Part shown: piece after piece, positions 5,456 to 5,715 of the stretch | How positions within the stretch are numbered: the first letter of the stretch is position 1 | Layout: the number at the start of each line of letters is the position of its first letter | Origin: a virus | Taxonomy: Duplodnaviria > Caudoviricetes | Virus record (IMG/VR): IMGVR_UViG_3300034161_000018 | Coordinates: 160,001 to 224,000 of that record | Reading direction: 5' to 3' (one strand) | DNA: 64,000 nt | Made by a program: the position numbers and the translations under genes | Notes under the pieces: model-generated | Database searches by the model: none | Told to the model about the DNA's origin: nothing | What the model saw: only the letters and a program-made list of their open reading frames with translations

Positions 5456-5630
5456 CTAGGCGCCCGGATCAAAACTGTAAACAAACCCTGTAGGGAAACG
5501 GAAAATGTTTCAATCGTTTCCCGAATCGAATTATAGGAAGCTGTAGCAGGCACCGGACAGAAACTGTAAACCCGGTAAGTGTTCACGGCAAACTGTAAAC
5601 GGAACCTAAGCTAAACCGTAAGCGTTACGT

Positions 5631-5659
5631 TTGACCATTCTCACCCGATTGGTTACAAT
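5631..5659 (+). promoter_or_regulatory. sigma70-type promoter
   Basis: TTGACC-17 nt-TACAAT. Confidence 0.85.
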
Positions 5660-5692
5660 GAGTCTCCTAGCGCAGCTTATGCCTACGGACTG

Positions 5693-5715
5693 ACACTTAC
5701 GACTTAGTGGAAGTT
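5693..5715 (+). promoter_or_regulatory. 23-bp leader element, copy 2 (consensus)
   Basis: ACACTTACGACTTAGTGGAAGTT, 33 nt after -10. Confidence 0.85.

Follow-up and report, generated by a model that had tools for sequence, protein, structure and literature searches.

What is the role of a 23-bp DNA element that recurs at a nearly constant distance downstream of host-type promoters in a jumbo phage, and what reads it? The question is raised by a stretch of 64,000 nt, referred to here as the window, that comprises bases 160,001-224,000 of the 274,896-bp IMG/VR virus record IMGVR_UViG_3300034161_000018, a record with direct terminal repeats. The large terminase of this phage (973 aa) shares 58% identity with its counterparts in the Pseudomonas phages Lu11 and HRDY3 and 56% with that in PaBG, and the phage is thus assigned to the jumbo phages of the Lu11/PaBG group. 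The element, a 23-mer (ACACTTACGACTTAGTGGAAGTT) called the box hereafter, belongs to a real and strongly selected module that marks the early promoters of a jumbo-phage family, and an inverted twin of the box, specific to the clade of this phage, points to a DNA-binding regulator. In the reading favoured here, to which a probability of about 0.45 is given on sequence grounds, the box and its inverted twin, the arm, would be paired operators of a dimeric regulator that is encoded by the phage, binds DNA and turns off early promoters through a loop or as a roadblock.

The box, its promoter and its inverted arm

Four copies of the box had been listed for the window in the original prediction, and they stand exactly as given, on the plus strand at 984, 5693, 8511 and 24933 with 2, 0, 1 and 1 mismatches; dinucleotide shuffles of the window gave no box match at all (0/100). 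Across the whole genome (275 kb), nine boxes are found at ≤3 mismatches, with 0 expected by chance, and the five outside the window lie on the minus strand at genome positions 13593, 28587, 43423, 49643 and 54945. All nine are intergenic and co-directional with the genes, of which a self-trained codon-usage call over the whole genome gave 324, nearly all on the minus strand over 0-156 kb and nearly all on the plus strand over 156-268 kb. Moreover, every box lies 33-36 nt after a sigma70-type -10. In the window, the gaps of 33, 33, 36 and 34 nt that had been reported after TAAAAT (945-950), TACAAT (5654-5659), TACTAT (8469-8474) and TACAAT (24893-24898) are right, and a motif search of the whole genome and of relatives placed the copies outside the window at the same promoter spacing (33-36 nt). 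The distance from the box to the ATG varies in this phage between 5 and 80 nt, whereas that to the promoter is constant. The restriction of the box to sigma70-type promoters, like the sites themselves, their geometry and their conservation, is observed directly.

The box is an imperfect dyad, ACTTAC-N8-GGAAGT, in which 4-5 of the 6 pairs match and one half is better conserved than the other. No compensating change accompanies those at positions 6, 15-17 and 20, and RNAalifold gave four invariant pairs and zero covariation; thus, an internal RNA hairpin in the box was discarded. The half-site CACTTAC occurs elsewhere in the genome 32 times against 33 expected, that is, there are no dispersed half-sites. 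Rfam gave no match at or near the cassettes, and no description of the box was found in the published literature searched.

The promoters of the cassettes look genuine, since seven of the nine carry a TGn extended -10 before TAnAAT and have no good -35, while in the two that lack TGn, those at window 5631-5659 and 8446-8474, the -35 is TTGACC or TTGACG at 17-bp spacing, and such an either-or pattern is what real sigma70 promoters show. A promoter scan of all 98 intergenic regions passed eight of the nine cassette promoters, together with seven non-cassette regions, mostly with poorer -10 hexamers. The box is absent from all four of these seven that were inspected, the two with the best hexamers included, and some look like uncalled coding sequence. 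The box marks all nine of the best host-type promoters found in the genome. With transcription taken to start about 7 nt after the -10, the box would occupy about +27..+49 and the arm about -63..-41, with centres near +38 and -52, respectively.

The arm is present upstream of the promoter in all nine cassettes of this phage, with 15-19 of 23 positions matching the inverted box consensus, and it ends 4-5 bp ahead of the -35 position. From start to start, the arm and the box are 89-93 bp apart in eight cassettes and 124 bp apart in the ninth, cassette D, where a terminator hairpin is inserted between the arm and the promoter. Of the partial inverted copies reported earlier beside the four window promoters, those at 894-904, 5611-5625 and 24808-24819 proved to be parts of full arms (894-916, 5603-5625 and 24809-24831), whereas that at 8554-8568 is a real but additional partial copy downstream of the box of cassette C, the true arm of which lies at 8418-8440. 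A sigma-E-like GGAACTT in the upstream arm, present in only three of the nine arms, was rejected by eye.

Orthologous cassettes in conserved order were found in three further IMG/VR records (G001, of 124 kb, G002 and G003). With the nine cassettes of this phage, six in G001/G002 and one in another contig (L074) taken together, all arms match their own box at 14-20 of 23 positions, at start-to-start distances of 88-93, 124/126 and 82 bp; shuffled upstream sequence gave a mean best match of 11-12 and a maximum of 13-16 of 23. The elements of the four cassettes of the window, A to D, are the following:

853-885, plus strand: intrinsic terminator module, a GC hairpin and T-run followed by TTTCGTTTCC, which ends the upstream operon just before cassette A and recurs at genome ~49.8 kb and 115,030
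894-916, plus strand: inverted arm of cassette A, 16/23 to the reverse complement of the box consensus
942-950, plus strand: extended -10 of cassette A, TGG TAAAAT
984-1006, plus strand: box of cassette A, 2 mismatches, ATG at 1022/1040
5603-5625, plus strand: inverted arm of cassette B, 16/23
5631-5659, plus strand: sigma70-type promoter of cassette B, TTGACC, 17 bp, TACAAT
5693-5715, plus strand: box of cassette B, exact consensus, first ATG 77 nt on (5792)
8418-8440, plus strand: inverted arm of cassette C, 16/23
8446-8474, plus strand: sigma70-type promoter of cassette C, TTGACG, 17 bp, TACTAT
8511-8533, plus strand: box of cassette C, 1 mismatch
8543-8569, plus strand: extra partial inverted copy (…GGCGTAAGCGC) downstream of the box of cassette C
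24809-24831, plus strand: inverted arm of cassette D, 19/23 to the consensus and 18/23 to its own box, 124 bp before the box
24832-24855, plus strand: terminator hairpin of cassette D (GGGGGCTTCGGCCCCC) and T-run between arm and promoter, read by eye, with a tail of 5 T of 8 that is below the T-run cut-off of the strict scan
24856-24876, plus strand: 21-bp block fully kept in G002, with a half-arm-like CTAAGTG and a -35-like TTGCCT
24890-24898, plus strand: extended -10 of cassette D, TGG TACAAT
24933-24955, plus strand: box of cassette D, 1 mismatch, GAGGAAG, with an ATG at 24959, so that the box also supplies the Shine-Dalgarno

The way in which the arms vary bears on what could read them. 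They retain the box positions that are invariant across the family (CTTACG, TA and GGA.GTT) and vary at positions 2-3, 10-12, 15-16 and 20, which are variable family-wide although fixed in the boxes of this genome. This profile fits one reader that sees both orientations and, thus, would have to read duplex DNA, and not arm-to-arm pairing. Complementarity between arm and box averages 17.0 within cassettes and 16.8 between cassettes, and no arm covariation was seen; pairing of the two copies in a cruciform or an RNase III stalk was set aside on this equality, a comparison that has little power, since there is hardly any variation among the boxes.

Inverted repeats of 23 bp that flank a promoter, as in invertons, could also be recombination or mobility sites, either of an invertible promoter switch or at the ends of a miniature mobile element of about 113 bp. 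However, no resolvase was found, only a sub-threshold integrase-like stretch in a 555-aa open reading frame that we guess may be the annotated topoisomerase I-like gene of Lu11, and all 15 cassettes of three records have the same orientation. Among the joints listed at three cassettes none changes strand, in contigs from metagenomes that drop rare variants; moreover, target-site duplications are lacking and the arms differ greatly in conservation. An inverton or a miniature inverted-repeat transposable element was thus rejected for want of a recombinase, for the single orientation and for the missing duplications, and a role in mobility is extremely improbable.

Terminators accompany the cassettes in several ways. 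By eye, a terminator-like hairpin lies just upstream of or inside at least five of the nine cassettes, and the strict scan lists only that before cassette A (genome 160853) among those associated with cassettes. The repeated terminator module (GGGGAGCC..GGTTCCCC, a T-run, then CGTTTC(C/T)GG) stands directly before cassettes or before a ACTGTAAA promoter. It had also been stated that three of the four window operons have an intrinsic terminator downstream, which is only loosely true. Co-directional terminators do appear in the strict scan at window 16930, 23195 and 41144, but the last is inside a called gene and the hairpin at 24832-24847 was read by eye only and falls below the cut-off.

Some observations concern the genes around the cassettes. 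Gene calls based on the longest open reading frame are misled by long antisense frames that shadow real genes, for example 8522-10396 (minus strand) over 8597-10351 (plus strand) in the window. The real 584-aa protein of the latter, after cassette C, has an acidic repeat region at about 9800-10050, the length of which differs among metagenome relatives, and a search for related loci with this protein as the query returned nothing. A glutathionylspermidine-synthase-like ATP-grasp protein (genome 14472-15809, minus strand) is 61-67% identical to its Lu11 and HRDY3 homologues, which exceeds the identity of the terminase, and it is absent from PaBG. Moreover, a TnpB-like open reading frame (genome 147366-148469, minus strand) and its adjoining 720-nt gap have no guide-like match to the box. 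A guide target of TldR (dead TnpB) was likewise rejected, with no match of ≥10 nt outside the cassettes and, in that locus, a best run of 9 nt at genome ~149,050, for which about 0.24 is the estimated expectation.

Conservation across the family and the probable mRNA leader

Contigs 93-95% identical to this phage come from metagenomes of freshwater sediment, wetland, wastewater and other samples (four DNA runs examined), and a pattern scan of metagenomes for further relatives of the clade returned only the G001 contig that was already in the set. Between this phage and G001/G002, a single alignment scoring gave identities of 93% (128/138) for the box, 75% for the arm, 74% for the sequence between them and 68-70% for the 100-nt flanks. 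The TGn of the -10 is kept as well, and boxes that lie far from any ATG still agree at 21-23 of 23 positions between relatives.

Beyond the clade, seven cassettes of Lu11, at least six of HRDY3 and about 20 further ones on IMG/VR jumbo-phage contigs (up to 314 kb long) carry a homologous box, with unchanged spacing to a sigma70 promoter. When 38 cassettes are aligned, 11 columns are invariant, all of them inside the box. Between clades, the outer halves of the box stay equally far apart and the middle TTAG is displaced by 1 nt, and within each lineage the box variant is homogeneous, with T or C at position 6 and a different middle. The Lu11/HRDY3-type cassette consists, in order, of a TTGACA-type -35 and a -10, a leader hairpin, a short and often A-rich spacer and a box such as ACACTCACGCAATTAGGGAAGTT. 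Most cassettes of this type have the ATG 4-8 nt past the box, and AGGGAAG or AGAGGAAG within the box is then the Shine-Dalgarno. The arm is absent from Lu11/HRDY3-type cassettes, with best matches of 10-13 of 23 that equal those of shuffled sequence, and is confined to the clade of this phage and to L074 (18/23 at 82 bp). In PaBG, neither the box nor a comparable cassette was found. The Lu11 annotation labels the promoters of its cassettes merely as sigma70-like. Part of the box seemed to resemble the complement of the 3' region of 16S rRNA, but this likeness is not kept in Lu11 and HRDY3 boxes and was dropped.

Several cassettes outside the clade have further features of their own. Those of HRDY3 (L038, L041), Lu11 (L031, L032) and three other loci (L054, L057, L116) have no arm, and a perfect 22-bp palindrome of the type TATACGCGTGCGCACGCGTATA lies about 120-135 nt upstream of the box, which is possibly a different operator or a terminator of the Lu11/HRDY3 clade. 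At another HRDY3 cassette (L042, position 282091), GGGAAGT of the box pairs with ACTTCCC 5 bases downstream, and a T-run follows, which makes an attenuator-like hairpin out of the box.

The leader between the promoter and the box is the part of the cassette in which RNA structure is evident. A stem of ≥4 bp is found in 37 of the 38 cassettes, and its end lies most commonly 6-8 nt ahead of the box (0-18 nt overall with the rule used). The stems differ in sequence with their pairing kept (GGGC/GCCC, GGAC/GTCC, GGCC/GGCC, GAGG/CCTC and CTGG/CCAG, with G-U pairs present), folding is stronger on the sense strand (-10.1 kcal/mol) than on the antisense strand (-8.8 kcal/mol), and comparison with shuffles gave a mean z-score of -1.3. 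Thus, the transcripts very probably begin with a 5'-terminal stem-loop, and this part of the cassette very probably works as RNA.

It is then natural to ask whether the box itself is read in the RNA. In such a reading, which is the main alternative to paired operators but doubtful, each early transcript would begin with the 5' hairpin, followed by a spacer (6-8 nt in most cases) and the word of 23 nt, and a factor of phage or host origin would recognize that word on the mRNA. The word could be an operator or enhancer of translation, an early-mRNA nuclease target like those of T4 RegA/RegB, a stability module or a nut/put-like signal of termination resistance. The arm would be a later addition, perhaps an anti-box whose pairing with the box is limited to read-through transcripts. 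The leader hairpin, with its varied but paired stems and better sense folding, argues for it, as do the invariably sense orientation of the box across the family, its fixed distance from the start and its place 4-8 nt before the ATG, with the Shine-Dalgarno inside, in most Lu11/HRDY3-type cassettes. In this phage, the change T16>A makes GAGGA only in the two cassettes where the ATG follows the box. The better conservation of the box than of the arm would also suit an RNA signal, and so would the terminators found a few genes past a cassette, with no new promoter between, at genome 27995 and 41932.

However, the boxes of this phage keep their distance to the promoter and not to the ATG, and most of its cassettes have a separate Shine-Dalgarno further downstream, yet the box is still selected and its GGA.GTT is invariant. 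The untranscribed arm, for its part, keeps the family-invariant positions and not complementarity to its own box. There is, moreover, no Rfam match, no boxA-like sequence and no covariation inside the box, and in the Lu11 genome no inverted copy of the right half of the box (12-mer, ≤1 mismatch) occurs anywhere, so that no obvious antisense partner was found. The earlier suggestion of an antitermination or pause signal belongs to this group of explanations and may hold. A box that stands at a constant distance from the start, behind a 5' hairpin that covaries, does resemble a boxB-boxA layout, but similarity to boxA is lacking and the untranscribed arm stays unexplained.

The sequence TACGACT, which the box shares with the 23-bp T7 promoter, suggested that the 23-mer may itself be a promoter, used by a phage-encoded polymerase or by a second sigma factor of the phage and arranged in tandem downstream of the host promoter. 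Its length and asymmetry are those of single-subunit polymerase promoters, and it lies directly before genes. Moreover, a possible second sigma-like gene in the PaBG group is mentioned in the PaBG paper (PMC7412058). In Lu11/HRDY3-type cassettes, however, the ATG lies 4-8 nt past the box, and a transcript that began in the box or past it would lack a ribosome-binding site. Transcription from the inverted copy would run antisense into the upstream gene. A six-frame search for a T7-like polymerase (PF00940) was negative, although the control genomes offer no validation of it. A T7-like promoter was rejected on the missing PF00940 and the closeness of the ATG in relatives, and the whole explanation is highly improbable.

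A further possibility is that the cassette has no dedicated reader and is a standardized early expression module (terminator, strong promoter, stabilizing hairpin and ribosome-loading leader) that evolves in concert and, like the PeSL cassettes of T4-type phages, serves as a recombination joint for ORFans. Homology to G001 stops at the cassette border in three of six orthologous pairs, and thus gene modules appear to have been exchanged at cassettes; gene shuffling by recombination between cassettes is a PeSL trait. One-sided breaks of this kind were seen at the cassettes at genome 54945, 49643 and 13593, compared with L028, L029 and L030 of G001. The genes after the cassettes mostly have no homologue in Lu11, HRDY3 or PaBG, that is, they are lineage-specific ORFans, as expected of early accessory genes. 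These breaks and ORFans, the hairpins seen by eye at at least five of the nine cassettes (at cassette A alone in the strict scan) and the homogeneity of box variants within each genome would all be accommodated. Nevertheless, concerted evolution would allow free drift, yet 11 box columns are invariant in 38 cassettes of lineages whose terminases are 58% identical; the fixed inverted arm would have no role, and boxes far from an ATG would not be expected to stay at 21-23 of 23 between relatives. A module without a reader is, therefore, unlikely.

Proposed paired operators and candidate readers

In the reading as paired operators, the nine cassettes would be early promoters for host RNA polymerase with a sigma70-type factor, and the box and the arm would be two operators for one sequence-specific, probably dimeric regulator that binds duplex DNA. 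This regulator, most likely encoded by the phage and made early or in mid-infection, would occupy both sites, bracket the footprint of the polymerase and join across about 90 bp, as at gal OE/OI and lac O1/O3; alternatively to a loop, protein bound at +27..+49 could block elongation as a roadblock. All early operons would then be turned down together as the regulator accumulates, and a phage sigma factor would take over at ACTGTAAA promoters. From the geometry of the sites, the regulator would be a repressor of intrinsically good promoters. That a protein reads the sites, that the phage encodes it and that its effect is repression we infer from these features; its origin in the phage is likely because each lineage has its own uniform box variant, as expected from co-evolution with a phage factor.

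A second class of promoters gives this scheme a counterpart. The word AAACTGTAAAC is the second enriched intergenic word, with 36 copies in the genome, and it equals the 16-bp 'putative middle/late promoter' annotated in Lu11; it is probably the target of a phage sigma factor. In the window, four copies (5474, 5563, 5592 and 5747) crowd cassette B. A 337-aa open reading frame (window 20688-21701, plus strand), just upstream of the SSB and UvsX genes, has a weak match to Sigma70 region 2 (E 3e-4) and is likely a phage sigma factor. According to the analysis of PaBG, the group lacks an RNA polymerase of its own but has sigma70-family factors (PMC7412058). The identity of AAACTGTAAAC with the middle/late promoter of Lu11 thus supports a two-tier programme, in which host sigma70 would act at the cassettes and then a phage factor at ACTGTAAA promoters, and a device for early shut-off fits such a programme.

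That a phage protein binds here to shut off early promoters was the first proposal of the original prediction, and it is the best-supported reading: the arms share the informative positions of the box, the box is a dyad, the two sites bracket the promoter and the genes downstream are ORFans. Binding could, on the other hand, have an effect other than repression, and several points weigh against the operators. No protein that binds the box has been identified, and the only clear helix-turn-helix protein in an early operon (HTH_3, genome 8736-9659, after the cassette at 13593) has no homologue in Lu11 or HRDY3. The box is far better kept than the arm (93% vs 75%, with 74% in the promoter region) and is, thus, under additional constraints from which the arm is free. 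In Lu11, HRDY3 and the phages related to them, the box is solitary and sense-only, contains the Shine-Dalgarno and follows a paired hairpin, and so looks more like an mRNA leader than like an operator. The displaced arms are shifted by +33/35 or -9 bp, about +3 or -1 helical turns, but this argument from helical phasing rests on three spacing classes only, and a spacing of 91 bp would follow in any case if the promoter fixed the place of each arm independently. Finally, the positions of both sites are counted from predicted start sites.

Candidates for the reader were sought through their distribution. A phyletic profile of proteins present in Lu11 and HRDY3 and not in PaBG gave 23 proteins, none with a DNA-binding signature. 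A 102-aa early protein (genome 53289-53597, minus strand), an SH3-like barrel according to the Atlas model, and a KTSC-domain protein (genome 41950-43023, minus strand), both among the 23, are encoded in or next to cassette-driven early regions in this phage, Lu11 and HRDY3. They are the sole early-operon proteins common to the lineages that bear the box and missing in PaBG, and on no other grounds they are candidate readers.

The operator and the RNA-leader readings are not mutually exclusive. One 23-nt word could be read twice by a conserved Lu11-like phage factor, as a duplex operator and as an mRNA leader (hairpin, box and ribosome-binding site) that controls translation or decay, with a shift toward DNA in this clade through the gain of the arm; this combination is unlikely.

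Comparable systems and the early-to-middle switch

The cassette is a variant of two known arrangements, operator-flanked promoters and the PeSL-type cassettes of T4. At gal OE/OI, where the GalR repressosome forms, and at lac O1/O3, as at the cassettes described here, two copies of one sequence, each a dyad though an imperfect one here, bracket a sigma70 promoter about 90-115 bp apart, one before the -35 and one in the leader. Here, however, nine promoters of a lytic-type jumbo phage are involved, the sites are of 23 bp with half-sites 14 bp apart, and the downstream site lies over a conserved mRNA leader. The C1 regulator of phage P1 also offers a parallel, as one phage regulator that acts at many scattered promoters through near-identical sites that are asymmetric or imperfect, but P1 is temperate, and its operators are 17 bp long, mostly single, overlap the promoter and have no sequence similarity to the box.

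The PeSL cassettes of T4-type phages are repeated units of a strong sigma70-like early promoter and a terminator stem-loop between non-essential early ORFans (PMC2839356, PMC4122927). They share with the present cassettes the repeated strong promoter and the break of homology between relatives at the cassette. However, they have neither a leader box nor an inverted arm, whereas here the box at +27..+49, and not the promoter, is the best conserved part.

Among RNA-level systems, T4 RegA and RegB control early mRNAs (reviewed in PMC3014915). The likeness consists in a signal that many early mRNAs carry at their ribosome-binding site or close to it, and in silencing, here only proposed, after the early phase. 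RegB needs only GGAG, and RegA sites are loosely conserved, whereas the word described here has 23 near-invariant nucleotides, is anchored to the promoter and not to the ATG, and has an untranscribed inverted twin. In lambda nut, rrn boxB-boxA and HK022 put, a variable hairpin followed by a conserved linear box likewise stands early in each early transcript. Those systems, however, have no inverted copy at the DNA level, and here the box has no similarity to boxA and the hairpin loops are not conserved; no N-like protein turned up, although no systematic search for one was made.

Jumbo phages that lack their own RNA polymerase must pass the host enzyme from early to later genes, and we know of nothing reported on this handover in the Lu11/PaBG group. 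The box, conserved across lineages whose terminases are only 58% identical and absent from PaBG, offers a handle on the early-to-middle switch, a defined 23-bp bait for the pull-down of the regulator and a sequence rule to find early promoters and early, host-takeover genes in uncultured relatives; the compact promoter-leader module may also serve as a part. If the dual reading of DNA and RNA were true, one protein would shut off early transcription and early translation together, which would be an unusual case of a single signal that works at two levels.

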